Assembly (NCBI GenBank): GCA_903944345.1
Contig: CAJARJ010000012.1
Span: 4,266 to 68,265 of the forward strand
Source: Candidatus Omnitrophota bacterium
GTDB taxonomy: Bacteria > Omnitrophota > Gorgyraeia > Zapsychrales > Fredricksoniimonadaceae
DNA length: 64,000 nucleotides
Direction of reading: 5' to 3'
Shown here: positions 9,100 to 64,000 of the stretch, piece by piece
Layout: the number at the start of each line of letters is the position of its first letter
Position numbering within the stretch: position 1 is the first letter of the stretch
Translations under genes and position numbers: made by a program
The notes under the pieces: generated by a model
What the model saw: the letters and a program-made list of their open reading frames with translations, nothing else
The model's database searches: none
What the model was told of the DNA's origin: nothing

Positions 9100-9912
9100 T
9101 CATTTCCGGCCTCGTATAAAAAAGACAACAATAAAGATCACAAAATTGGCACACACGATCGTAGCCCCTGAAGGAAGATTCCAAATATAGGAAACAAAAA
9201 TTCCCGTAATAACAGATACAACCGAAAAAACTGCCGCCAGCAAGATCGCCGCCCTGAAATTGGTAGCTACAAAAAGAGCGCTGACCGCAGGAAAAACAAT
9301 CAGGCTTGAGACCAGCATGGTTCCTACAACCTTGATCCCTAAAACAACTGTCAGAGCCGTAAGGACAATGAGTATTCTGTTAACCAGTCCCGTTCTGATC
9401 CCTGATACCTGTGCATGATCCTGATCAAAAGTCACAGCAAACAGATCGTGATAAAAGAATCTTACCAGGCCCATGATCACAAGAGAAAGAATTACCGACA
9501 GAATGACTTCTGTCTGACTGACAGAAAGAATATTCCCGAAAAGATAACTGAAAAGATCCACATTAAACCCTCCCGCCACACTGGCAATGAGAACCCCGAT
9601 GGCCACGCCCATCGCGGAAAGAAGGCCTATGGCAGCATCTCCATAAAGCAAGGATTTCTCGGTCAGTCGCAAGACCAGCAAGGCGGCCAAAACAACCAGC
9701 GGAAGTGATATAAAAATCGGGGTGACATGTACCAGAAGCCCAATGGCAATCGTTGCAAAACTTATATGCGCCAGGCCGTCTCCAATCAAGGCAAAACGCT
9801 TGAGAACAAGAAAGACGCCAAGGAATGCACAGCAAAGCGCCACAAAGCACCCGGCAATAAGGGCTCTCTGGATAAACGCGAATTGTAAAGCTTCCCGAAT
9901 ATCAGTGAACAT
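9100..9912 (-). CDS. znuB: Zinc/manganese ABC transporter permease (ZnuB family)
   Basis: Polytopic membrane protein of the ABC-3 family (FTDIREALQFAFIQRALIAGCF...). An ATG at 9912 directly follows the znuC stop in a TGATTATG arrangement. An alternative start lies at 9933. Confidence 0.8.
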   Translation of the reverse strand: MFTDIREALQFAFIQRALIAGCFVALCCAFLGVFLVLKRFALIGDGLAHISFATIAIGLLVHVTPIFISLPLVVLAALLVLRLTEKSLLYGDAAIGLLSAMGVAIGVLIASVAGGFNVDLFSYLFGNILSVSQTEVILSVILSLVIMGLVRFFYHDLFAVTFDQDHAQVSGIRTGLVNRILIVLTALTVVLGIKVVGTMLVSSLIVFPAVSALFVATNFRAAILLAAVFSVVSVITGIFVSYIWNLPSGATIVCANFVIFIVVFFIRGRK

Positions 9913-9914
9913 AA

Positions 9915-10667
9915 TCAACCGTGCCTGTGGCAAATCAGATGTTGTCCTGCACCGAAATAACGGGTCATGTCCGGGGAATGACAGAAATTATCAAACGATC
10001 CGAAAAAGACCACCTTCTTGTCCAGATAGAGAAGCTTGCTGGCGTATTTCCCCATAGTGACCGGATCGTGCGAAACAAAAAGGATGGTCGTCTTTTGTGT
10101 CTTGTTGATCTTTTGCAGCAATACGTAAAACATTTCTCGTGTTGCTGGATCAAGGGCAGTTGTAGGCTCATCCAGAAAAAGCAGTTCCGGAGCATGCACC
10201 AGCGCTCTGGCCAGCAGCACGCGTTGCTGCTGCCCTCCGGACAAGCGCCCGATCATGCGCGTGCGAAGATCCGCAATCCCCAGATCTTTTAGTATATCGG
10301 CCACACGATCCCGATCAGAAGATGTCATTTCTTTAGGATAAGGACGAGAAGCTATAAGCCCGGCCGCCACGACCTCATCGACATTGGCCGGAAAGCGCTG
10401 ATCCAGATGAGTAATACGTTGCGGAAGATACCCGATCTTTTTCCAATCTTTAAATTCCTGCTGCTCCTTGCCAAAAAGAACAACCTGACCGGAAGCCAGC
10501 GGCAAAAGACCCAGTACAGCGCGAACCAGTGTCGTTTTGCCTGATCCGTTGGGTCCGACAATACCGATGTAGTCGCCTGCATTGACCACAAGATCAATCT
10601 GGCTCAAGACTTCGGCCCCCTGATACATTACGCAAAGACTTTTAACATCGAGAGGAATTATTGACAC
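9915..10667 (-). CDS. znuC: Zinc ABC transporter ATP-binding protein (ZnuC family)
   Basis: Walker A GPNGSGKTT, ABC signature LSGGQQQR and Walker B LLFLDEPT. Confidence 0.85.
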   Translation of the reverse strand: MSIIPLDVKSLCVMYQGAEVLSQIDLVVNAGDYIGIVGPNGSGKTTLVRAVLGLLPLASGQVVLFGKEQQEFKDWKKIGYLPQRITHLDQRFPANVDEVVAAGLIASRPYPKEMTSSDRDRVADILKDLGIADLRTRMIGRLSGGQQQRVLLARALVHAPELLFLDEPTTALDPATREMFYVLLQKINKTQKTTILFVSHDPVTMGKYASKLLYLDKKVVFFGSFDNFCHSPDMTRYFGAGQHLICHRHG

Positions 10668-34526: not shown

Positions 34527-37349
34527 TTACAGGCCCAAGAACACAAACAATGTTGTATCGGCCGGGCGGATATCAATTATGAAGGGAGCAAGCCCTGCAG
34601 CGAAACGGATTGCCTGGGCTTTCACGGGATCAAACACGATACTATTGCCAACTTCTTGAGTCAGAATCTGCAAACCTGATCTGTCAGGGGCAAGATCAAT
34701 GCCGCCTTTCTGATCCGGAGAAATCTTGGACTCCTCGTGGAGATGCACTCCGGAATCATCCACACTTATCCATGTATAAGTCTGCTCTCCCGGAGTATCG
34801 TGGCGACCCCATTCATTGCAGTTTGACCATGTGCCGGAGTTGACATACTGCCAGGCAGTCTCCCCCTCAAGAAGCATCCCCAGAAAACCCTCCCCCGGCT
34901 TCTGGGGTTCATGAGTATGGCCATAAACAATATAACGCTTCCATTGCTCAACAGGAATGTCCTTAAACAAATCCGGGTAAAGATACGGCAGAAGCTCGTC
35001 CCATAACTCGCCCAACTGTCTGATCCTTTTCTTCTGGGCACTAACCAGAAACAGCTGGAACCCGGAAACATTCTTTATCATAAAGGTCATAAAAGGGAAA
35101 AACATATCATTCTCGACAAACTGATTTAGAGTCCCCCAATGACGGTTTGACAACGCACTCATGAAGTTATCAAGGACACTTCCCCCTGCCTGTTTATTAT
35201 TAAACTTGTCGGGAACATGTCCGTGTTCAAAGTGCAGGATCTGACCTGCGGCAGGACGGACAATAACCACATACCGGCTGATAATCATTCTGTCTTTCCG
35301 GTCTTTATTCACCACTTCAAGAAGTTTATGTCCGATATCATCATTGAGGTCCGCTATCATTTTCTGTACATACAACACAGCCTTCGCCAGGGGCATCGAA
35401 AGGACAGAGTCGTCAAACCAGACATATCCTTCTTTGTCCATAACCGGGCCATAAGGCAGCTTCGCCCGGGTAAGCCTGGCAATATCTTTGGCCTTGGCCG
35501 CCCGGATAATGTTCTGAAGTTGTTGCGTGCGGGCAAAATCGGTAATCTCCAGATTTTGAGCCATCTTGGCCAGATGACGCCTCTTTTTTGCGAGACGTTC
35601 CTTGAGGATAACATCATCGTGATTACCTGCAACATAAAACACCTTGTCACAACGGGCTAAAGCTTCAAAGAAAACCTGATAGGACTGATAGACATCGCCG
35701 TAGCGATTCTTCTGAAGCTCGAGGATATCGCCATTGAGCACAACCACCTGTTTCTCTTCTGCCGCAATGCGCAACAGGTCAAGCAATTCCGGTAAACGCC
35801 CGGCAAAAGCGTCATGCGAATCTCCTGCCCCCAGGTGAATATCAGAAAGATTCAGAACCTCCTGATCGGTTCTGTAAATAAAGGTTCTTTGCTTTTTGCT
35901 CCAGCGCTTTACCTCCTCAAGCAAGGCCTCCGCCCGCTTGGCAAGCCTGGGATGCCGCTTCATTCGTTTGCCGAAAAAAGCATCCACTTTCCCGTTATGA
36001 ATGGAGAACAATATGGACTCCTTCTTATACTTCTCCTGCCAGAACCAGCCACCCGCAATCGCCTGCTGAATAAAACGTACGACTTGCTTCTTCTTGTCAC
36101 CGGTAACCCCCAGCCACTGGTCTTGCGATCCGTTATGAAAAAGCATCAAAGGGTTCTTTTCGGCAACCTTGCGCCAGGCTCTGGCTGGCGAAGAAGATAG
36201 TGCCTCGTCTGGCTCTGCCGACTGCGAAAAATCAGCCCTGTCGTCCGGAACAATTTGCATGGCCGTGCGAATGATCATGGTTCGCCCGGAAAACCCGGGA
36301 AGGGATACATCCTCGGAAAAAGGGCGAATATCCATAGCGGCGTCCACTCCCAGATCAAATCCTCCGGAAAAATATTTTCTCGGCAGTGGCTGACCGCCAG
36401 AAGAATCCGGATCTTCTGCAATATGCGTATAGGCACCCGTATTAAATCCCTGAGCATACCGCTTCCATATGTCATGCGGTTCTTGCGGATTGGCAATACT
36501 TACTCCGGCAGTTTTGGCGCGATCTGCATACTCCTGTGACAACACAGACTGCTTCATTTTGATCTTGTACCAGGCGGCAAGAATCAGGGAATGATACACC
36601 TGACGTAATTGGGCAAAATAGCTGCCTTCATTAACCTCTTTTTCTATAACCGGGATAACGACCTCGCGTAAAACAGAAACAGCCATAGAGGAAATTTCAG
36701 AAGTGGTATCAACGCTCGCAGCGTTATAATCCCTGTCAAGGATCACTTCAAGCCGGGCTTCGGCCACATACGCCGCTCCGGCATTTTCATAGACCACAGC
36801 TTTGCGGGGAACAATCCAGACCTTATTGATCAGCTCTAATGGAATATCGGTGGTGCCGTACTTTTGCTGTGCCAAAGCATATATCTTTTGCCAGAACTTC
36901 TCACCAGTCTTGTCTTGCGGGAACAACAAGGCCGTCGTTAACTGTTTAAGCAGATAATCCTGGGCCAGAAGATCGCGTCCCATCTCCGTCAGGCCGAAAG
37001 TTGGAGGAATAACACGATTTTCTTCGTACGGGCTCAGGTTAACCCACAGATCATGCTCGGGAATGGTCAAAGCGGCCAAAAAGTACTTAAGCAAACGGGT
37101 GGAGTCAACCCTGATATCATTAAATGAAATATTGGCATCCCCTTTATCAAGAATGAAATCAAACCTTAAGGGTTCATCCGGATAAATTTTTATGCCTTGA
37201 AGAAGGGGGGGATTAAGTGCCTGGCTTGGGGCCGACACCTGGCCGGGAAAAAGGTCGACTCCTGCCTCAAGAGGAGACAAGTTAACAGACACAAATACCA
37301 ACAAAATGATAAAAGTTAAGAACTTCATCACAAAAACCGGGAATGCCAA
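34527..37349 (-). CDS. Large secreted protein, paralog 1: novel conserved N-terminal domain, calcineurin-like metallophosphoesterase module and conserved C-terminal tail
   Basis: 940 aa with a signal peptide MKFLTFIILLVFVSVNLSPLEA. The N-domain motifs LRFDFILDKGD, WVNLSPYE, TEMGRDLLAQDY, GTTDIP, LAAWYK and RKYFSGGFD are shared with the 851-aa and frameshifted paralogs. The metallophosphoesterase motifs are SDIHLG, NGDILE, GNHD, HFEHGH and GHTHEP. The tail is GGIDL...AGLAPFIIDIRP. Confidence 0.8.
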   Translation of the reverse strand: MAFPVFVMKFLTFIILLVFVSVNLSPLEAGVDLFPGQVSAPSQALNPPLLQGIKIYPDEPLRFDFILDKGDANISFNDIRVDSTRLLKYFLAALTIPEHDLWVNLSPYEENRVIPPTFGLTEMGRDLLAQDYLLKQLTTALLFPQDKTGEKFWQKIYALAQQKYGTTDIPLELINKVWIVPRKAVVYENAGAAYVAEARLEVILDRDYNAASVDTTSEISSMAVSVLREVVIPVIEKEVNEGSYFAQLRQVYHSLILAAWYKIKMKQSVLSQEYADRAKTAGVSIANPQEPHDIWKRYAQGFNTGAYTHIAEDPDSSGGQPLPRKYFSGGFDLGVDAAMDIRPFSEDVSLPGFSGRTMIIRTAMQIVPDDRADFSQSAEPDEALSSSPARAWRKVAEKNPLMLFHNGSQDQWLGVTGDKKKQVVRFIQQAIAGGWFWQEKYKKESILFSIHNGKVDAFFGKRMKRHPRLAKRAEALLEEVKRWSKKQRTFIYRTDQEVLNLSDIHLGAGDSHDAFAGRLPELLDLLRIAAEEKQVVVLNGDILELQKNRYGDVYQSYQVFFEALARCDKVFYVAGNHDDVILKERLAKKRRHLAKMAQNLEITDFARTQQLQNIIRAAKAKDIARLTRAKLPYGPVMDKEGYVWFDDSVLSMPLAKAVLYVQKMIADLNDDIGHKLLEVVNKDRKDRMIISRYVVIVRPAAGQILHFEHGHVPDKFNNKQAGGSVLDNFMSALSNRHWGTLNQFVENDMFFPFMTFMIKNVSGFQLFLVSAQKKRIRQLGELWDELLPYLYPDLFKDIPVEQWKRYIVYGHTHEPQKPGEGFLGMLLEGETAWQYVNSGTWSNCNEWGRHDTPGEQTYTWISVDDSGVHLHEESKISPDQKGGIDLAPDRSGLQILTQEVGNSIVFDPVKAQAIRFAAGLAPFIIDIRPADTTLFVFLGL

Positions 37350-37370: not shown

Positions 37371-39926
37371 CTATTGGAAGATGGAAACAGCCGGATCAAC
37401 TATCCGGTCGATCCCGATAATCCGCGGTGAAAGTCCTGCTCTTACGGCCGGCAGAGTGGCTGAATCGATATTAAAATGAATCGGTCCACCATCATTAGCG
37501 ATATCCAGCTTCATATTGCGAGTGGACATATCAATACCACCCACCGGCTCAACCGCCTGACTCGCATCGGCTATTCTTTTATGCAAAACATCCTGACTCC
37601 AGTGATCCTTACTGTCTTTCACTGACCGATAATCGTTAGCGATGGCCTCAAGAGACTCTGCAATCGTTCTGTCCCACCCACCCCATGTGCCCGCAAACTC
37701 TGGAATCAATCCCCTTGAATATTTCAACGCCAGATCATACGGATTGGAATTTGCGTATTCAACAAGATCCGCATCGACAATCAAAACTTCCGGAGTCCCG
37801 TCCTGGGCGGACTGAAGAATAAAATTCGCAGCTCGGGGGTCATTTATCAGGATTCCTCTGCCTACAAGTGTACGGAACAGACGGATAAGAGCCTTGATAA
37901 TGTCCTCGTTCATTGTACCGGCGGCAATCACCTTATCCAGAGAGTCACCTGACATCCATTCCACAGCCAGAAGTTCTCTGCCATTGGTAGCCTTGATCAC
38001 TGCAACCCATGCCGGACCAACTCCCTCTTGTTCGACTATTCTGAAACCGTCTTTAATCTCCTTAAGAACAGTATCCATCCTGATCGGCGCCCGAATAGCC
38101 ATATGCTGGTTTTTATAGACATCATGGTTACCGCCAGATCCGACATATTCCTGCTGAACCCCTTTCATAATCAAGGTTTTTTCTCTTCCCTCAACCTGAA
38201 CGGGTTTCGACCGGCCCAGATGAATCAGCTGGGAGAACCGCTTGAGAGAAAAATTCATTAAAACACGCTGAAGCTGTCGTTCTAAAGAGGAATCATCTAT
38301 CTCCAGCACAACCTGATGAACACCAGGCCCCAGAGCAGGCAAAACCAGGTCATTAAGAAGAAGATAGTTCATCGGTTGTTGCCAATATTGACGCCAGAGT
38401 TCTTTATTGGTTATCTTCCTGATAATGATCATTTTCTCACCATACTGCCCGGCATACACGTCTTCGTTATCAGAAGACTTCAATAATCTGGTCTTCTCGA
38501 CATTATCTGTCACAAAACCACGTAAAAAACGCCGCCTTGTATTCTCAAGATCTTCATTAAAAGCAGCCACAGATGTCCCGAGCGAATCAAAAAAAGTCGC
38601 CATGCCCGGACTAGTGCGCTGATAAAGAAAGGTTTTAACAACTACCTGGCTTAACCTGAGAATATAATCCGGGGTAGCCTCTCTCCTTGAAATATCCGGT
38701 TTCTGCGCCATATCTGTCGATATATCCGAACGGCTGTCCTGAGGCTCTACCAAAACTCCTACTCTTATCAACCCTTGCGGATTATTAGCAAAAAGATTGC
38801 TGGAAATCTCCTGTAGGGATGCACGTTCCATCGCTTTATCGAAGTCCGGCGCAAACCCGCCCGAGAAATATTTGCGCAATAGCGGGTCACCCGAAAAAGG
38901 ATCCGCCTCTTCTTTGATATAACTAAAAACACCCTGCCTGAAAGCGGCCATGTATTGCTGGTAAATTTCATTAAGTACTTTGGGATCTCTAAGATTAACT
39001 CCATCCGTCTTGCCTTTGTCAACGTACTGATCGTACAAGATACCTTCCTTGACCTTGCGCTTGTACCATGCCGCCAACGCCATGGAGTAATAAATCTTGC
39101 GCAACAAGGCGAAACTTTCACCATCATTGATTTCTTTCTCGATAACAGGAAGAATAATTTCACGCAACCCGGGTTGAACCTGATTTTCTTCGGCCTCGTT
39201 ATGGACACTATTGCCAGATTGCACCTTCTCCGCCAGATAATCGCGCTCCAGCGCGACTTTCATCCTGGCATTCGCCAGCATGGCTATATTTCCATTCTCA
39301 TAAAACGCCGCTTTGTCCGGGCTGATCCAGACTTTATTGAAAACATCAAACGGAATATCAGTAGTTCCAAAGGCTTCCTGCGCACGCCGATAAACGTCAG
39401 TCCAGAATTTCTTCCCCAACGGTGCCTCGGGGTATACAAGAGAAGCCATAATCTGTTTGAGCATATAATCCTGAGCCAACAGGTCACGCCCCATCTCGGT
39501 ACGGGCAAAATTTTCACTAACAATCCGCTTATCTTCATAAGGAGAAAGGTTGACCCACTGCTCCTCTTCCGGAACAGTCATTGCTGCCAGAAAATATTTA
39601 ACCAGTCTCTCGGATTCAGCGGTCAGCGCCTCACCGGAAAGCAGCTCGTCTCCCTGATCCATAAAGAAATTAAAACGAAAAGGATTATTGATGTCCACCT
39701 GAATGCCAACCAGGCAAGCGGGCTTGAACCCGTGGCTGACATCAACCATAGATCCCGGCAACGGCAAGGCTACGCCTTCAATGGCATATACCGGCAAAGA
39801 ATTGATGAATAACACCTGAACAATAATAATATGAAATAGAATGCGAAACATCAGTTTCTCCCAAACATTCAAACTTTCAGAATTATGAAACTTACCACCC
39901 GATAATAAATATAATATATATATCAA
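37371..39926 (-). CDS. Large secreted protein, paralog 2: same N-terminal domain and C-terminal tail, with a putative kinase-like internal module
   Basis: 851 aa with a signal peptide. The N-domain is FRFNFFMDQGD, WVNLSPYEDKR, TEMGRDLLAQDYMLKQ, GTTDIP, LAAWYKRK and RKYFSGGFA. The internal region has a Gly-rich loop VGSGGNHDVY, ILINDPRAANFIL and LIVDADLV, which suggests a kinase-like fold. The tail is GGIDM...AGLSPRIIGIDR. Confidence 0.8.
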   Translation of the reverse strand: MIYILYLLSGGKFHNSESLNVWEKLMFRILFHIIIVQVLFINSLPVYAIEGVALPLPGSMVDVSHGFKPACLVGIQVDINNPFRFNFFMDQGDELLSGEALTAESERLVKYFLAAMTVPEEEQWVNLSPYEDKRIVSENFARTEMGRDLLAQDYMLKQIMASLVYPEAPLGKKFWTDVYRRAQEAFGTTDIPFDVFNKVWISPDKAAFYENGNIAMLANARMKVALERDYLAEKVQSGNSVHNEAEENQVQPGLREIILPVIEKEINDGESFALLRKIYYSMALAAWYKRKVKEGILYDQYVDKGKTDGVNLRDPKVLNEIYQQYMAAFRQGVFSYIKEEADPFSGDPLLRKYFSGGFAPDFDKAMERASLQEISSNLFANNPQGLIRVGVLVEPQDSRSDISTDMAQKPDISRREATPDYILRLSQVVVKTFLYQRTSPGMATFFDSLGTSVAAFNEDLENTRRRFLRGFVTDNVEKTRLLKSSDNEDVYAGQYGEKMIIIRKITNKELWRQYWQQPMNYLLLNDLVLPALGPGVHQVVLEIDDSSLERQLQRVLMNFSLKRFSQLIHLGRSKPVQVEGREKTLIMKGVQQEYVGSGGNHDVYKNQHMAIRAPIRMDTVLKEIKDGFRIVEQEGVGPAWVAVIKATNGRELLAVEWMSGDSLDKVIAAGTMNEDIIKALIRLFRTLVGRGILINDPRAANFILQSAQDGTPEVLIVDADLVEYANSNPYDLALKYSRGLIPEFAGTWGGWDRTIAESLEAIANDYRSVKDSKDHWSQDVLHKRIADASQAVEPVGGIDMSTRNMKLDIANDGGPIHFNIDSATLPAVRAGLSPRIIGIDRIVDPAVSIFQ

Positions 39927-46387: not shown

Positions 46388-48668
46388 TCAATAATTCTGT
46401 GTGTCACTAATTATTTTATACGGATCTATAGAGATAATAACCGGTGAGAATCCGGCAGCGTTCTGCATCTGCTGAAGCTGCTCAGAGGTCAGGTCTACCT
46501 CGATTGCAGTGCTATTATTCCGTGTCTCAAACTGGGCATTGTCGGGGTTCAGGTTAATACCACCGACTGCTTCCTGCCCAGGCAGAGAAGACAAGGGCTT
46601 TTCCATCAAAATTCCCCATTCTTCATTCATCCTCCGGGACAACTCCCAGGATTTCTGCAACAAACTTCCTCTATTGCGGCTCTTGAGCAGCGCAAGAACT
46701 TCTTCCGCATAAAATTGCTGATCCTTATCAAGAACAAGTGGTTTATACCCCAACATTCTATACAAAACAAAATTGGCTAATCCGTGAGGCAAAGTGCTGC
46801 CAATTACAAGAGAATCATAACCAGACTCGACTGCCAGTTCCTCGAGAGACTTAAGAATACTTTTAAATAATGCGCCCGCGTAAGGGAAAGATGGATACAT
46901 CTGTGACGGATACAACATGCGTTCCTCGTTTCGCAAGCGCTCCAGCAACAACTGCACGTTTGTATCATCGTCTTTCACCTTCAGAGCCGATTCAATTTGC
47001 GTTTGTCTCAGGCCCACGCTGGCCTCAGCAAAAGAAAGAAGAACTTTGCGATCCTGCCAGTCAAACTGCGGTAAAGCTTGCATAAACACGCCCTTTAACT
47101 GCTCCAAAACTTTCTCCAAATTACGCTTTCCCCACTCATCTGACCCCATCCAGATTTTCTGCGTCAGGATTACAGGTGACGAGGTGGTCATCTCCAGATG
47201 GGCCCGGCCGATGATTAACGAGTTGCGATCAAAACCACGACCATTCAATAAATTAAATTGGATAAAAACACCCTGATTATTCCTGTAGACAAGATCGTAA
47301 CTGTCGAAATCATCGGACTGGATTATCTCTCCCAGAAGCGTACGGGTTGTAAGCGTTCGCCCGGGGCCTCTTAAGATATCAACTTGCGGCTCATCATAAT
47401 ACTGCGACAATATCCCCTCCAGACGCTCTTTCTGACGTTCAATCAGCCGGCTAAACTGCTCTCTATCCGCTCTGGAACGTTTAACCTTCAGTTTGGGTAA
47501 AACAGACTCCTGAGCCGGATCTCCTGGCAGAACAGAGGTCTCTTCACGAACAATCACCAGTCTGTCAGCAGCACTCGGCCCCAGGTCAACCGGCCATACG
47601 TCCGATTTTACTGTCAGAGAACTATCCATTGCCCAATCAATACCGCCGGAAAAATATTTTCTGACCAACACTTCGTCAAACAATGCATCAGGTTCTTCCT
47701 TAATAAAATCATACGCGCCCTTGCGGAAGGAAACGACATAATCCTTCCAAATACGGTCCACTTCCCCGGGGTCTGGAATATTTATTCCGGCAACCTTATT
47801 CCGGTCAACGTAAACAGCGGACAATAATGATTGTCTGATCTTTCGTTTATACCAGGCGGCAAGAATCAAAGACTGATAAACCTGTCTGAGCGTCGCAAAG
47901 TTCTTACCTTCATTAACCTCTCGCTCCAGTTCAGGAATGACCATCGTACGTAAAGCTTCCTCCATCATCATATGATCCGGACTTGCGGTTTGGGGCACCG
48001 CACTTTTTTCTTGTGCCAGATAATCACTTTCCAGCTTAACCTCCAAGTGAGATTCGGTTACATAAGCCAGCCCCATCTCGCCATTCTCAAATACTACAGC
48101 TTTTCCAGGAACAATCCAAACCTTGTTCAACGTATCAAGCGGAATATCCGTAGTGCCATATTTTTCCAGGATCCGGGCGTAAATTCTCTTCCAGAATACT
48201 TTTCCAATCTCCCCTTCAGGGTTAAGAGTCTTTGCGGTGATTTGCTTGAGAAAATAATCCTGCACCAGTAAATCTCGCCCCATCACAGTCTGCCCAAAGG
48301 CTGGGGGAACGATGCGATTTCTTTCATATGGACTCAGGTTAACCCAGAGGTCATTTTCAGGAATTGTCAGGCTGGCAAAAAAAATATTTAATCAGACGGG
48401 TTGATTCACTTTTGATCTGGTCATTAGTAATTCTTTCATCGCCTTTATCAAGAATAAAATCAAACCTGAGCGGATTTCGAGGATATACCCTAATTCCTTT
48501 TAATACAGGCGGATTGAACGCCGGACTTAAAGACACCACCTGACCACCGGGAGGAGTCAAAATCGGCTCCCCGGCATACAGAATAACTGGGCTCAAAACA
48601 TGTGCCAGAACTATCCAAATGATGACAAATTTTCTTAGAAACATGAAGGAAAGATACCTGACCAACAC
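46388..48668 (-). pseudogene. Large secreted protein, paralog 3: frameshifted in an A8 homopolymer, with its 3' end overwritten by an element terminal repeat
   Basis: The N-terminal ORF 48357-48668 (signal peptide, then LRFDFILDKGDE...KYFFCQPDNS-stop) and the ORF 46388-48286 (MMGRDLLVQDY...) are joined by a +1 shift inside a run of 8 A (48377-48384). With 7 A the reading is KYFFASLTIPENDLWVNLSPYERNRIVPPAFGQTVMGRDLLVQDY, collinear with paralogs 1 and 2. The last 9 codons (KIISDTQNY-stop) are encoded by the element TIR at 46391-46415. Confidence 0.7.
46391..46415. repeat. Solo terminal inverted repeat of the 133-bp element (inverted left end)
   Basis: AATTCTGTGTGTCACTAATTA matches 21 of 21 of the reverse complement of the element's left end (AATTAATTAGTGACACACAGAATT). 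No internal element sequence follows. Confidence 0.6.
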
Positions 48669-59745: not shown

Positions 59746-59878
59746 AATTAATTAGTGACACACAGAATTGTTTCTTGACATTCTTTACGACAATTAAACT
59801 TGTTGCAGGTCTGGATTTTTTCATTGCAATAGAATGTAACAGAATGTGATAGAACAATTCTGTGTGTCCCCGATTATT
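59746..59878. mobile_element. 133-bp MITE-like element, copy A, with 18-bp terminal inverted repeats
   Basis: AATTAATTA-GTGACACACAGAATTGTT...(about 100 bp)...AACAATTCTGTGTGTCCC-CGATTATT. It is 98% identical to copy B at 61822-61954 and lies between tetR and tacA. Confidence 0.7.
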
Positions 59879-59994
59879 TTTCTGTACGTAATCGATCCGG
59901 CCTCAAAGACGGCGGTGTTATGATCATAAATTATTTAGTGTGGACAAAGTGTGTACGGAATGGTATCCTTGAATCGTAAAAGAAAGGATCACCT

Positions 59995-60270
59995 ATGCCA
60001 GTTATACAAAAAGACACCCGCATTGACCTGAGGATCGAGAACTCCCAAAAGGACTTCCTGGTCTATGCCGCAGGTCTCAAAAACATGAAGCTCTCCGCTT
60101 TTGTATTAAACAGCGCGATCAAGGAAGCCGAGGATCTGGTGGCCAGCAAGACCCAGTTTGCACTGCCAGATGCCCAATGGAAGGCCTTTAGCGCGGCTTT
60201 GGACCGCCCTGCGCGCGAGAACCCCAAGCTCAAGAAACTCTTCAAGTCAGCCGATGTTTTCCATGGATAA
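59995..60270 (+). CDS. tacA: DUF1778/TacA-family ribbon-helix-helix antitoxin
   Basis: 91 aa (RIDLRIENSQKDFLVYAAGLKNMKLSAFVLNSAIKEA), preceded by the RBS AAGGA. Its stop overlaps the toxin start as ATGGATAA. Confidence 0.8.
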   Translation: MPVIQKDTRIDLRIENSQKDFLVYAAGLKNMKLSAFVLNSAIKEAEDLVASKTQFALPDAQWKAFSAALDRPARENPKLKKLFKSADVFHG

Positions 60271-60766
60271 GCTTAAAAACCCTGTCCTTCTGGACCAGCA
60301 CCATGATGTCGATGATTTCGACTGCGGTGCTGAGCCTTTAAACAATTACCTTAAGAACTTTGCTCTCACCAACAATCAGAACGGATCGGCCAGGACATAC
60401 ATTACGACCAGATCCGGTAAGGTTGTCGGCTACTATACATTGACCCCAGGCTCGGTCATCAAGGCCACAACACCGCAACGTGTCGGCAAAGGCCTCGCTA
60501 ACCACCCGGTACCCGTCATTGTCATCGCCCGTCTGGCCGTTGATAAGACTGAACAAGGCCACGGCATCGGTAAAGCGCTTGTCCGCGACGCACTGTTAAG
60601 GATCGTTGACGCCGCCGAAATTATTGGAGGCCGCGCCGTTCTCGTCAACGCAAAAGACGCACAGGCTAAACGTTTCTACGAGCAACTGGGCTTTGATCCA
60701 TCCCCCATCGACCCGCTTCATCTTTATTTACTCATCAAAGATATTCAGAAGACAATCGGACTTTAA
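60263..60766 (+). CDS. tacT: GNAT-family acetyltransferase toxin (TacT-like)
   Basis: 167 aa GNAT fold (VIVIARLAVDKTEQGHGIGKALVRDALLRI). The start is set to MDKLKNPVLL, overlapping the tacA stop. The track ORF extends further upstream, out of frame with tacA. Confidence 0.8.
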   Translation: MDKLKNPVLLDQHHDVDDFDCGAEPLNNYLKNFALTNNQNGSARTYITTRSGKVVGYYTLTPGSVIKATTPQRVGKGLANHPVPVIVIARLAVDKTEQGHGIGKALVRDALLRIVDAAEIIGGRAVLVNAKDAQAKRFYEQLGFDPSPIDPLHLYLLIKDIQKTIGL

Positions 60767-60909
60767 TTCTTTAAACTATTTGACGAATACCAACGGGCAT
60801 CTTTGACTTATCACCGACATTGGCGAAGGCTCAGGAAGCCCGTCAGCGGTGATCCTAGCTAATCAGAAAACCCGGCTTTGCTCCCGGATAGGCCGGAGCC
60901 TCGAGAACC

Positions 60910-61809
60910 TCACCGATTATATTCGTAGTGCACACTCCGTCCGCCGCCGGAGGCTTGCCGTAACAAGCCTTTTTCGACCATATCCGAGATCTCACGGAAC
61001 GCGGTCGCCCTGCTCGTGCTCCCAAGGCTCACATATTTCCGGGTCGTCAAACCACCGACAAATTCACCCGGCCCGGCATCCAGCATCCGATTAAGGATCT
61101 TCTTTTGACGCTCATTGAGCTGAACTTGCGCGTGCTCTGCCCAAAAATCCGCCTTCAAAAGGACCTTGCCCATTATCTTTTCCGACTTCCCGATGGCGCG
61201 CTGATAACACCCAAGGAACCACGAGAGCCAGCCTGTGAGGTCCAGATCAGCTGTCTTCGAGTTCTTCTCGAGGATCTTGTAATAGTCATCCCGCTCTTCC
61301 ATGATCTGGGATGAAAAGCTGTAGTATCTCACCTTGAGTTTCTCGTCCTGCGCGAGCGCCATATCAGTAAGGCTCCGGGCAATACGCCCATTGCCATCCT
61401 CAAAAGGATGGATCGTCAGAAAATAAAAATGCGCCACCCCCGCGCGCAGAAGCCCGTCCACACTGCCGTGGCTTTCCTTCCACCACTGAAGGAATCTTTT
61501 CATTTCACCATCGACCTCGTCCCCGGGAGGCGCCTCAAAATGGATACGTTCACGCCCCACTGGCCCCGAAACAACGCGCATAGGGTCGTCGTGGCCTCTC
61601 CATTGAGCGACGCGGATCTTATGAAGTCCCGAGTACCCTGTCGGAAAAAGAGCGCCATGCCATCCAAAAAGCCTCTGCTTATTCAAAGAAATATCGAATT
61701 TCCGGGTCGCGTCCAGAACAACCTCGACGAGCCCATCAACAGACCTGGATGAACCCCCGAGACCCGCTGTGGGAAGCCCCAGGTGCCTTGCCACTGAGGA
61801 GCGGACCAT
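60910..61809 (-). CDS. fic: Fic/DOC-family protein (AMPylator-type) with a C-terminal winged-helix domain
   Basis: Fic motif HPFEDGNGRIARSL. The first ATG is at 61809 (MVRSS...). The track uses a TTG at 61821 that abuts the element. Confidence 0.8.
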   Translation of the reverse strand: MVRSSVARHLGLPTAGLGGSSRSVDGLVEVVLDATRKFDISLNKQRLFGWHGALFPTGYSGLHKIRVAQWRGHDDPMRVVSGPVGRERIHFEAPPGDEVDGEMKRFLQWWKESHGSVDGLLRAGVAHFYFLTIHPFEDGNGRIARSLTDMALAQDEKLKVRYYSFSSQIMEERDDYYKILEKNSKTADLDLTGWLSWFLGCYQRAIGKSEKIMGKVLLKADFWAEHAQVQLNERQKKILNRMLDAGPGEFVGGLTTRKYVSLGSTSRATAFREISDMVEKGLLRQASGGGRSVHYEYNR

Positions 61810-61821
61810 CTGCAAATTCAA

Positions 61822-61954
61822 AATTAATTAGTGACACACAGAATTGTTTCTTGACATTCTTTACGACAATTAAACTTGTTGCGGGTCTGGATTTTTTCAT
61901 TGCAATAGAATGTAACAGAATGTGATAGAACAATTCTGTGTGTCACCGATTATT
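61822..61954. mobile_element. 133-bp MITE-like element, copy B, with perfect 18-bp TIRs
   Basis: Same sequence as copy A with 2 mismatches, and perfect TIRs GTGACACACAGAATTGTT / AACAATTCTGTGTGTCAC. It is followed by a tandem 11-bp duplication CCGATTATTCC x2 (61946-61967) that overlaps the stop of the Ank-RES gene. Confidence 0.7.
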
Positions 61955-61960
61955 CCCCGA

Positions 61961-63985
61961 TTATTCCACCGCCTCGCTCGACTGCTTCCAACGATCCCAC
62001 GATGAGCGCCTACCGCACTTTAGGCATTCGTGACCAGGGCCGATGTATGGCACGTCCAAAACATCCAAGAGGCGGAATACTCTCACAAGCTCAGAACTGC
62101 TATGCTGAAAGTACCGATAGCCACATTCCGGACATACCACTTCCACGTAGTTCGGATTTCGGTCGGAACCGCCCAACCGGTTGGCCGTGACGCCAGATGA
62201 CAGCAGATCCAAGTAGAGCACCTTCTCCTGACACTGAAGGGTAACTGTCATGATGGAATCCATGTAACGTATCGGCGACAACACCATGTGTTCTTTAGGC
62301 GGGGCGTAGTTCACCCTGCCGTCGGCTACCTCACTGAATGTCAGAATGCACTCTGCTTCAACAAGTTGCCCTTGCCCGTCCGTTTTGGTCACTCGAAACA
62401 CGTTGACGGCTGCAACCCCCAGCTTGCTATCCACCTCCTCTGGCTTTATTGCCAAGTTTTCGTATGCCACAGGCGAATCAGTTCTTCGGATCGATGGGTA
62501 TAAAAAGCCTGAATTGCCAGGAAAATCGAAGTAGGTGTCAATGATCTCATTGGTAAGCTTGTAATACTTCTCGTCAGTGCGCGTCAGAGTGAAAAGACCA
62601 TTGAGGAACTCATTGGTTCTCACAAGCGCACGCTTTCTCTCCTCGGTGACCGGGATGTCTGCTATTTCGGCCAGCATTTCGATGCCGATCGGCGCCACGG
62701 TGAGTGACATCCCGTCCCGAATAACGTAGGAAACCATAGTGAAAACTTCACCTATATGCATCTCGCCCACCTCAAAGATTGGTGCGATGGGATTTGTCGA
62801 CGCGTACAGCAAGGGTGCGTGCGGCCTGTTGCATCTGCCGTACGACTTGCATGACTGTGCAGGCGGATAAAAGAGATCAGCCACTTGGTGGAAGGCATCA
62901 ACCCCATGATTCTTCCTGATCCTGTAGAAACTCATCTGCCCCGGGGACACGTTAACACTGCCAGCAACTACTTCCGGCATGATCTCGACAAGAATCTCAC
63001 GGATCGTTGGCCATGGCTCCGCTCTATCAAGGCAGTCGTTGAAATCTGCGATTGCCACCTCTCTGCGCCGAACTGAAATTGGGAGTGGGAATTTCACATC
63101 CGCGCTCGCACCCGAACTGGCTAGAAGTTGTACTATTTCAGTATATCCGTTAAGAGTGGCAATCTTGAGCGCAGTAAAACCGTTATGGCAAGGCAGGTCT
63201 GGGTTTGCTCCAGCCTTCAATAGGAACGCGGCGACTTCGTACCGACCCCAGCAGCATGCGGTCATCAACGCTGTAGAACCCCTTTTATTCGTCGCATTCA
63301 GATACGCGCCGTTCTTGACGAGAAGTTCGACTACGCCGACATGCCCGAATTGAGAGGCAACGTGAAGAGCCGCGCTTTGGTTTTCTTTGGTCAGACGCCT
63401 GCCAACATCTGCACCATTACTCAGAAGAAGACGCACGACACTCTCTTGTCCGCCCTGCGATGCCATGAACAATGGGGTTGCACCGTCGTTCCGGAGTGAC
63501 AAGTCAACTTTGGCGCCGAGAGCAAGCAGGAGCTGTGCGGTCTCGAGTCTATTCTCCTGGCACGCTACGGAGAGAGGCGTTGCTGTGCCCATGTCAGGGT
63601 CTGCACCGGCTTCGACCAACATGCGGACCACTTCCGAATAGCCATTCTCGCTGGCGATATACAGCGCCGTTAGCATTGCTACACTTATCATCCGTATATT
63701 TGGGTCTACCTCCCGCTCGACGAGGTCCTTACGATATTGTGCTCCGTCTACTTCTGCCTCAATATATGAAAGACCGTTTGGATCAGCCCCGTTCCGGAGC
63801 AGGAGCGTTACGATCTCAGAGGAATTCGCCTGCGCGGCTGCATATAAGGGCAGAAATTTGCCGGAATGGGTTTCGTAGATTTCGTTGACAATCCCTGGAT
63901 TCAACGTAAGGGCAACACGCACGCCCGTGGGGTTCCCTTGGAGAATCGCTTTTATCAACGCGTCAGTGGCAAAACGTTTCATCAT
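61961..63985 (-). CDS. Ankyrin-repeat protein fused to a RES-domain (NAD-targeting toxin-like) module and a C-terminal zinc ribbon
   Basis: 674 aa with about 8 ankyrin repeats (TPLxxAxxxGHxxVVxLLLxxGAD pattern). It then has a RES-like core (SFYRIRKNHGVD...GRCNRPHAPLLYASTNPIAPIFEVGEM...YPSIRR) and ends in CPECGYRY...CLKCG. Confidence 0.7.
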   Translation of the reverse strand: MMKRFATDALIKAILQGNPTGVRVALTLNPGIVNEIYETHSGKFLPLYAAAQANSSEIVTLLLRNGADPNGLSYIEAEVDGAQYRKDLVEREVDPNIRMISVAMLTALYIASENGYSEVVRMLVEAGADPDMGTATPLSVACQENRLETAQLLLALGAKVDLSLRNDGATPLFMASQGGQESVVRLLLSNGADVGRRLTKENQSAALHVASQFGHVGVVELLVKNGAYLNATNKRGSTALMTACCWGRYEVAAFLLKAGANPDLPCHNGFTALKIATLNGYTEIVQLLASSGASADVKFPLPISVRRREVAIADFNDCLDRAEPWPTIREILVEIMPEVVAGSVNVSPGQMSFYRIRKNHGVDAFHQVADLFYPPAQSCKSYGRCNRPHAPLLYASTNPIAPIFEVGEMHIGEVFTMVSYVIRDGMSLTVAPIGIEMLAEIADIPVTEERKRALVRTNEFLNGLFTLTRTDEKYYKLTNEIIDTYFDFPGNSGFLYPSIRRTDSPVAYENLAIKPEEVDSKLGVAAVNVFRVTKTDGQGQLVEAECILTFSEVADGRVNYAPPKEHMVLSPIRYMDSIMTVTLQCQEKVLYLDLLSSGVTANRLGGSDRNPNYVEVVCPECGYRYFQHSSSELVRVFRLLDVLDVPYIGPGHECLKCGRRSSWDRWKQSSEAVE

Positions 63986-64000
63986 TATTGACCTTCTGTC

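Follow-up and report, generated by a model that had tools for sequence, protein, structure and literature searches.

We analyzed a 64,000-nt stretch of DNA from a Candidatus Omnitrophota bacterium (contig CAJARJ010000012.1; hereafter, the window), in which a first-pass annotation had described a toxin-rich accessory block near the window end. The listing of open reading frames (ORFs) confirmed that four ORFs are present there (59995-63985). They encode a TacA-type antitoxin, a TacT-type toxin, a Fic protein and a 674-aa protein that combines ankyrin repeats, a RES-like domain and a putative zinc ribbon. The last of these proteins is our main subject.

The ankyrin-RES-zinc-ribbon gene occupies 61961-63985 on the minus strand, and its 2,025-nt reading frame is intact in the ORF listing. 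Gene calling gave an identical 674-aa protein on 14 or more metagenome contigs, which came from several samples. Residues 1-296 (63098-63985, minus strand) form the ankyrin module (Pfam Ank, E 1.6e-47; Ank_2, E 9.4e-46), which consists of an N-terminal cap and seven canonical repeats, each with an LLxxGA end, with an insertion of ~30 residues after repeat 1. The earlier count of about eight repeats was thus a fair one. Matches to PDC-M72A, MzaA and Legionella Ank effectors (PADLOC, NCBIfam) covered the ankyrin repeats only and lay far below the family cut-offs; we rejected them as generic repeat similarity.

The ankyrin module is followed by a helical linker and a predicted divergent "long" RES core (residues 299-563; 62297-63091, minus strand), which is supported by homologues, profile comparison and the AlphaFold2 fold. 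A low-confidence linker (residues 575-610; 62156-62263, minus strand) then precedes a putative zinc ribbon of the form CPEC-32-CLKC (residues 612-674; 61964-62152, minus strand; AlphaFold2 per-residue confidence, pLDDT, 54-76). The CxxC...CxxC ribbon that had been noted before was found as C618/C621 and C654/C657, and these four cysteines were invariant in all four sequences with the tail (the window protein, P0001, P0157 and P0003). From this motif, we infer that the ribbon binds zinc. The ribbon tail had no significant Pfam match, and a search using the tail alone returned only the protein's own cluster.

The central domain and its relatives

When the full-length 674-aa protein was scanned with Pfam, ankyrin families were the only matches, and RES was not detected. 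An exhaustive HMMER search over 1.84 billion cluster representatives (E <= 1e-3) matched 337 cluster representatives, most of which were stand-alone proteins of 260-320 aa that aligned to residues ~350-550. A word-indexed homology search found a single relative. One representative (P0024, 1,820 aa) was rejected as a spurious, repeat-driven match. Pfam RES (PF08808, E <= 0.01) was matched by 42 of the 61 aligned homologues (best E 7.7e-12), among which P0006 scored 26.3 bits, over the cut-off; the score of a fused relative of the window protein, P0157, was 18.7 bits. Further, an hhalign comparison of the protein and its closest orthologue with the PF08808-positive set gave a probability of 92.8% (E 4e-7).

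Nine columns, among them those of the residues that characterize RES enzymes, were nearly invariant in an alignment of 149 sequences. Numbered as in the window protein, these were R355 (62921-62923; conserved in 147 sequences), R384 (62834-62836; 148), N386 (146), Y394 (62804-62806; 148), E405 (62771-62773; 148), Y475 (143), Y496 (140), S498 (62492-62494; 134) and N510 (62456-62458; 140), with all codons on the minus strand. Their pattern corresponds to the active-site residues R27, R47, Y58, E69 and S126 of MbcT (PMC6436930) and to R23, R82, Y93, S184 and N193 of NatT (PMC11535050), as judged by motif spacing and by alignments with ParT and 8gug. In the latter, which were marginal profile alignments (ParT, 6d0i), the motifs GRxN...Y...E and PS...N were in register; the PDB profile matches (E 0.7-1.6) served motif registration only. 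The loss of catalytic residues that would have contradicted a RES assignment was not seen, and the Arg/Arg/Tyr/Glu/Ser/Asn set was retained.

An AlphaFold2 model of the region comprising residues 299-674, built from the 149-sequence alignment, had a pLDDT of 81.3 and a predicted TM-score (pTM) of 0.73, and values in the core were mostly 88-97. This model superseded one built from two sequences (pLDDT 33.6), which was discarded. The top Foldseek match among solved structures was the P. putida RES toxin (6gw6_A; E 9.2e-4, probability 1.00), followed by ADP-ribosylating toxins. From homology, residue conservation and the predicted fold, we assign residues ~299-563 to the RES superfamily, as a divergent, "long" representative whose catalytic-type pocket is intact. 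The RES domain named in the first-pass annotation therefore held at the level of family and fold; Pfam applied to the protein alone was insufficient to find it, and the domain belongs to a divergent "long RES" subfamily. In a separate comparison with BFVD, the RES-like model (residues 299-674) matched uncharacterized giant-virus proteins of ~345 aa from Yasminevirus, Terrestrivirus and Hokovirus (Foldseek probability 0.99-1.0). Relatives of the RES-like fold may thus exist in Klosneuvirinae-like viruses.

The closest relatives of the window protein occur in two forms. P0001 (381 aa) is a RES-ribbon protein that is 78% identical to the RES-ribbon part of the window protein. On 17 contigs (L007-L010), its gene immediately follows one for a 294-aa ankyrin protein, with an overlap of 4 nt (ATGA). 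This ankyrin protein and residues 1-296 of the window protein share 77% identity. P0157 (675 aa, 70% identical) is a second fused relative. Comparison of the window gene with the split orthologue gave ratios of nonsynonymous to synonymous substitution rates (dN/dS) of 0.24 (ankyrin part) and 0.41 (RES-ribbon part), indicating that both halves are under purifying selection. In sibling proteins, TPR (P0052) or DUF5677 (P0164) takes the place of the ankyrin repeats.

Where the two parts are separate genes, ankyrin comes first and is translationally coupled to the RES-ribbon gene, as the antitoxin gene is to its toxin gene in RES-Xre and most type II systems. This layout is our main reason for proposing that the ankyrin module binds and controls the RES enzyme, and the module probably stands in for the antitoxin. 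The first-pass annotation had favored other functions over a classic two-gene toxin-antitoxin system. This was correct in that there is no Xre partner, but the 77%-identical relative does encode the ankyrin and RES-ribbon parts as overlapping genes.

The clade of fused and split forms is rare, with three or four clusters among 5.8 billion proteins. No member of this clade was found in 185,579 species-representative genomes, where the full-length query matched 20 loci through the ankyrin part only, so that the fusion was seen in no cultured or species-representative genome. There was no match in phage records, and plasmid records gave weak matches only, to Listeria plasmids. We found no report of an ankyrin-RES fusion in the literature searched, where absence is not proof of absence.

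Neighboring genes, mobile elements and the defense island

The tacA-type antitoxin gene (DUF1778, 91 aa) lies at 59995-60270 on the plus strand (Pfam TacA1, E 3.3e-21; 75.5 bits, compared with a cut-off of 21) and is followed on the same strand by the tacT-type gene (60263-60766), which encodes a GNAT acetyltransferase toxin of 167 aa (Pfam GNAT families, E 7e-11 to 6e-10). The tacT start codon (ATG, 60263) lies inside the last tacA codons, giving an overlap of 8 nt in an antitoxin-first bicistron, as confirmed by translation. The closest solved structures to the GNAT protein were those of TacT (7ak7, E 2e-34; 6g96, E 8e-27; 5fvj, E 2e-23), and there were further PDB matches to AtaT (6gts, E 1e-18; 6ajn) and KacT (5zgn, E 6e-16). 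The acetyl-CoA motif Q-x-x-G-x-G was read in its sequence as QGHGIG. In domains, gene order and overlap, the pair agrees with TacAT, AtaRT and KacAT, from which there was no notable difference. The TacAT-type module that had been annotated here was thus confirmed by Pfam and by structural relatives; judged by its domains and layout, it is a standard DUF1778-GNAT toxin-antitoxin pair with nothing unusual about it, and it would be of the tRNA-acetylating type. A promoter-like site precedes tacA (59941-59969); such sites were not enriched relative to shuffled sequence, and promoter and terminator scans performed no better on the window than on shuffled sequence.

The Fic gene (60910-61809, minus strand; 299 aa from ATG; Pfam Fic, E 7.7e-13) is a 5'-truncated gene of class II (DUF4172-type, SoFic-like). 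An alternative TTG start lies at 61821. The motif HPFEDGNGR is encoded at 61384-61410 (residues 138-146 counted from TTG) and fits the canonical HPFx(D/E)GN(G/K)R, which the protein shares with SoFic. Further, it matched the PADLOC SoFic profile (E 2e-36), of which positions 141-351 of 361 only were covered. Cluster relatives, which are 91-97% identical, are 371-380 aa long and possess 68 additional N-terminal residues, including TSEIEGE. Similarly, residues 2-297 of the window protein align with residues 77-369 of 8cil_A, and residues 1-76 of 8cil_A are unmatched. The N-terminal 68-75 residues found in the close relatives, comprising the DUF4172 part and the inhibitory TSEIEGE, are therefore missing from the window protein. 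The inhibitory motif of class II Fic proteins is reportedly (S/T)xxxE(G/N), which the TSEIEGE of the relatives fits.

The Fic ORF begins immediately after the position of TSEIEGE, exactly at the boundary of a miniature inverted-repeat transposable element (MITE)-like sequence (copy B, described below). The 5' remainder of the gene was not found across this copy, where the stop codon of the ankyrin-RES gene comes directly. Because its N-terminus was lost at the MITE boundary, the window Fic gene is either a pseudogene or, if expressed, would encode a de-repressed enzyme without the inhibitory glutamate. The annotation of a Fic AMPylator was accordingly right about HPFEDGNGR, but the gene is not intact, and the inhibitory motif is gone. 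The last ~6 residues of the protein (HYEYNR) also differ from those of the 91-97% identical relatives (HYDILWP...), pointing to another rearrangement, at the 3' end of the gene. One full-length relative, with DUF4172 and Fic, was found in an unrelated gene context.

MITE-like copies A and B bracket the TacAT-Fic segment, so the annotated interleaving of the block with MITE copies was borne out. Copy A (59746-59878, plus strand; 133 nt), a member of a direct-repeat family, lies between a TetR gene and tacA and has terminal inverted repeats of ~39 nt (inverted arms 59746-59784 and 59841-59879). Copy B (61822-61954, plus strand; 133 nt) lies between the 5' end of the Fic gene and the ankyrin-RES stop codon; it has the orientation of copy A and 98% identity to it. 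The terminal inverted repeats of the copies are 36-39 nt long with the core GTGACACACAGAATTGTT. This terminal motif occurs five times in the window, compared with zero expected, and a half-site lies at 46390-46410. A second direct-repeat family, unrelated to the MITE, has three copies of 140 nt in the window (36943-37082, 39454-39593 and 48243-48382; 70-73% identical).

The start codon of the ankyrin-RES gene is abutted by the remnant of an IS3-type (insertion sequence) transposase gene, an rve_2 C-terminal fragment that begins at 63986-64000 on the minus strand and continues outside the window. The sequence beyond base 64000 was examined on contig L001, which matches the window over 12 kb with 99.9% identity, in reverse-complemented orientation, and extends 10 kb further. 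On L001, the remnant was read in the stretch 9776-10000, which also holds a short MITE variant. An rve_2 gene fragment was called on contigs L003 and L006. Additional MITE copies lie on L001 at 1795-1917 (third copy) and ~9776-9866 (a short variant of ~95 nt that precedes the rve_2 remnant), and the IS3 rve_2 element may be the parent of the MITE family.

Toward the window, L001 carries dnaX, recR, an HNH-like ORF that overlaps a group I intron, and the third MITE copy. These are followed by a helix-turn-helix (HTH) gene of the CapH type and a CapP-like M78 peptidase gene, and then by CD-NTase, two-transmembrane (2TM) effector and second CD-NTase genes of the cyclic-oligonucleotide-based antiphage signaling system (CBASS) type. 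Thus, in the CBASS-like set (L001 2031-6058), two CD-NTase genes flank one 2TM effector gene, with the CapH/CapP-like pair ahead. Next come four genes without a family match (127, 242, 207 and 110 aa, one with a weak papain-like C92/NlpC signal), a gene for an AbiJ_NTD4/PDC-S32 protein, and the short MITE variant with the IS3 rve_2 remnant. The ankyrin-RES gene, a MITE copy, the truncated Fic gene, tacT-tacA and a further MITE copy follow, and beyond these lie the TetR gene and a resistance-nodulation-division (RND) efflux operon. The group I catalytic intron (RF00028; L001 1275-1530, plus strand; 60.9 bits, E 1.9e-13) is located ~8.5 kb beyond base 64000, between recR and the first MITE copy on L001, where its sequence overlaps the end of the HNH-like 118-aa ORF (L001 974-1330).

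The block in the window is the right-hand end of a ~12-kb mosaic defense island between recR and the TetR/RND efflux operon. Three MITE copies in the same orientation bound and subdivide the island, whose edges coincide with MITE copies. A join between tacA and the CapH-like gene on L004 (4301-4400) was considered as a circular or excised form of the island and rejected, because it is a scaffolding join through a repeat, made across a gap of 100 N within the MITE. The island is also a mosaic in GC content: the ankyrin-RES, Fic and TacAT genes have 51-55%, compared with 39-47% for the AbiJ-like, CBASS and TetR genes and 47.7% for the whole window. This suggests that the ankyrin-RES, Fic and TacAT genes were acquired separately from the rest of the island.

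The sequence past the window end thus agreed with the first-pass annotation in several respects. The genes do continue beyond base 64000 on L001, and a toxin-rich accessory block is a suitable description of the TacAT, Fic and ankyrin-RES genes. The CBASS cyclases and 2TM effector, the CapH/CapP-like pair and AbiJ_NTD4 indicate that the block is not a housekeeping operon, and these markers favor a role in abortive infection or defense over a housekeeping role. The absence of an Xre-type antitoxin gene next to the ankyrin-RES gene, which had been noted for the window, was confirmed (no adjacent Xre/DUF2384 gene) and extends to the 10 kb past the window end. The only HTH gene near it is the CapH-like gene, 7.6 kb away and paired with the M78 peptidase gene.

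No Xre/DUF2384 neighbor was present in any of nine homologue contexts. The fused relative P0157 is encoded between GmrSD and a PLD/DUF1998/helicase/methylase (DISARM-like) cluster. Stand-alone long RES genes neighbor PIN toxin-antitoxin pairs and a TNT toxin in Gillisia sp. JM1 (AUKH01000010.1; L011, L012), and NERD, DUF2971, methylase, HNH and nSTAND3 genes in another context. Further contexts contained a CTD12-MC8-DUF2326 three-component system, a DpnII-MboI domain protein, and ToxN/AbiQ on a Listeria plasmid; that of P0162 contained nothing defense-related. In Gillisia sp. JM1, a segment of ~11 kb is duplicated on the same contig, with IS3-type transposases at its bounds, and includes the stand-alone long RES gene, two DUF6364-PIN pairs and a TNT-domain protein.

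Comparison with known systems and possible function

The window protein belongs to the same predicted enzyme superfamily as the toxins of the RES-Xre systems (COG5654-COG5642: MbcTA, P. putida Xre-RES, NatRT and ParST/PrsT). It shares with them the NAD+-pocket residues Arg/Arg/Tyr/Glu/Ser/Asn and, in the AlphaFold2 model, the ADP-ribosyltransferase-like fold, for which 6gw6_A was the best solved match. Further, the split orthologue likewise has an upstream partner gene that overlaps the toxin gene. However, the antitoxin of RES-Xre systems is an Xre/DUF2384 protein, whereas a covalently fused ankyrin solenoid of ~295 residues occupies this place in the window protein. Canonical RES toxins comprise 145-190 residues, compared with a core of ~265 residues in a 674-aa three-module fusion here; relative to canonical RES, the long RES core is enlarged by a helical extension at its N-terminus, an inserted helical segment and a beta subdomain at its C-terminus. 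The window protein also differs in its sub-threshold Pfam score, its extra Cys4 ribbon and its location in a defense island instead of the core genome. By its sequence, the protein is likened to a RES toxin and is set apart from the RES-Xre systems, the defining antitoxin of which is absent.

Another parallel in layout is CapRel(SJ46), which holds a toxin and its neutralizing module in one polypeptide, with two genes in homologues, and has an antitoxin-like module that acts as the phage sensor, as is proposed here. The modules of the present family are likewise separate and adjacent in L007-L010 and joined in one polypeptide in the window protein and P0157, as in fused toxin-antitoxin sensors; this is a functional analogy. 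The folds and the chemistry are unrelated, as CapRel(SJ46) is a RelA/SpoT-like tRNA pyrophosphokinase and the window protein is RES-like, and the order is reversed, with the presumed antitoxin at the N-terminus here. The SIR2 and TIR defense systems (DSR2, Thoeris and the SIR2/TIR proteins associated with prokaryotic Argonautes) share with the window protein the predicted loss of NAD+ leading to abortive infection, a sensor-plus-NADase layout and an island location. Their catalytic fold is SIR2 or TIR, in contrast to RES here, and known NAD-targeting immunity uses TIR and SIR2 only (PMC11535050). A study of polymorphic toxin systems (Zhang et al. 2012, PMC3482391) lists RES, with its two Arg, one Glu and one Ser, among the toxin domains of conflict systems and describes ankyrin-repeat immunity proteins (Imm-ank) that neutralize toxins, a precedent for the ankyrin role proposed here. 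In that study, however, the partners of Imm-ank are nucleases and deaminases (e.g. Tox-AHH), not RES, and its toxins have domains for secretion or trafficking that the window protein lacks.

We propose that the RES domain, when free, would arrest growth by breaking down NAD+ or by consuming it in the ADP-ribosylation of a target. The N-terminal ankyrin solenoid would keep the enzyme off in place of an Xre/DUF2384 antitoxin and would probably also serve as the recognition surface for a trigger, for which a phage protein is the most likely candidate. The four-cysteine ribbon at the C-terminus would be an accessory module. Activation would then result in abortive infection. The NAD+ substrate, the inhibition by the ankyrin module, the phage trigger and the binding of zinc are all points that we infer, and we give the whole chain, from attack on NAD+ to abortive-infection-type defense, an even chance of being correct. 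More tentatively, and with what we regard as a somewhat lower probability, the window protein and, more broadly, the Xre-less "long RES" subfamily of ~337 clusters could be a previously unrecognized single-gene anti-phage system, with a RES-fold NADase as the abortive-infection effector and ankyrin, TPR or DUF5677 as the antitoxin-sensor.

Several observations weigh against this proposal. When residues 299-674 were scanned alone, Pfam RES (PF08808) scored 17.1 bits (E 0.0057), under the gathering score of 23.2. The sequence profiles reached solved RES toxins only marginally (E 0.7-1.6), among chance matches, and the structural match to 6gw6_A had a modest target-normalized TM-score (0.52) and a high root-mean-square deviation. 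That the ankyrin module inhibits the RES enzyme is our guess from gene order and from the relation between the fused and split forms, and the split could be a recent frameshift instead of an ancestral two-gene state. The location in a defense island is circumstantial, with nine neighborhoods inspected. Further, the native upstream region of the ankyrin-RES gene has been replaced by IS and MITE debris, so that its expression is uncertain. Finally, no link between RES toxin-antitoxin systems and phage defense has been reported to date, and NatT showed no phage phenotype (PMC11535050).

This last point is also one of those that speak for an addiction-type toxin-antitoxin without an immune role, in which the ankyrin module would be an unusual proteinaceous antitoxin, now fused, and the gene would serve selfish persistence or stabilization of the island, as has been proposed for many chromosomal RES-Xre loci. 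The antitoxin-first, overlapping layout of the split orthologue agrees with this explanation, as do the MITE and IS remnants at the flanks and the GC content of 51-55%, compared with 39-47% in the neighbors. However, addiction normally depends on degradation of the antitoxin by itself, which a covalent fusion prevents; the fused members lie among recognized defense systems in both of the two cases; and the sibling TPR and DUF5677 fusions resemble sensor-effector proteins. We therefore consider addiction unlikely, although it deserves consideration. We place in the same range of likelihood an explanation that concerns the chemistry and could coexist with a defense role, namely that the protein is a ParT-like mono-ADP-ribosyltransferase in which the ankyrin module recruits a protein substrate and is no inhibitor. 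ParT/PrsT is a RES-fold enzyme that ADP-ribosylates Prs without depleting NAD+; ParT is the RES structure that the family profile reached, with GRxN...Y...E and PS...N aligned; and the next-best fold matches were ADP-ribosylating toxins. On the other hand, most characterized RES toxins (MbcT, NatT, the P. luminescens RES toxin, SlvT and VPA0770) degrade NAD+, and a constitutively targeted toxin without an antitoxin would kill its own host. Sequence cannot discriminate between NADase and ADP-ribosyltransferase chemistry.

A delivered effector is a less probable explanation still. Omnitrophota include host-dependent nanobacteria, and the ankyrin module could target a protein of a host or prey cell, eukaryotic or prokaryotic, which the RES domain would then intoxicate. 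Ankyrin repeats are typical of secreted effectors, NCBIfam gave partial matches to Legionella Dot/Icm Ank effectors (all far below the cut-offs), and both elements, RES and ankyrin, are documented in polymorphic toxins (PMC3482391). However, the Legionella matches reflect generic ankyrin similarity, and the toxin domain is internal instead of C-terminal. Pfam found Ank and RES only, with no signal peptide and no PAAR, Rhs, LXG, MIX or TPS domain, and there was no secretion-system gene or downstream immunity gene within 10 kb on either side; all neighbors are intracellular defense or toxin-antitoxin genes. Lacking a signal peptide, a secretion-system marker and an immunity gene, the targeted effector that the first-pass annotation had offered as an option is without support. 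We consider it very improbable that the gene is a decaying, functionless remnant among IS and MITE debris. The IS3 fragment abuts its start codon, MITE copies flank it, and the adjoining Fic gene is clearly truncated, but the 2,025-nt ORF is intact, all conserved RES residues and the four cysteines are kept, dN/dS relative to the orthologue is 0.24-0.41, and at least 14 contigs, drawn from several samples, carry identical copies.

The truncated Fic gene and the MITE copies are ordinary genome debris of some illustrative value, in that the block illustrates how MITE and IS activity reshapes defense islands. The proteins of the long RES subfamily are annotated only as "hypothetical" or "ankyrin repeat protein", and the RES part was undetected by PADLOC; current defense-finding tools would therefore miss the subfamily. 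RES toxins are a large family, the physiological role of which is still debated. If the proposed function is true, the window protein would represent the first immune effector based on RES, which would join SIR2 and TIR as a third enzyme fold for immunity by NAD+ depletion. Further, the pair of fused and split forms would add the ankyrin solenoid to the short list of antitoxin/sensor modules.

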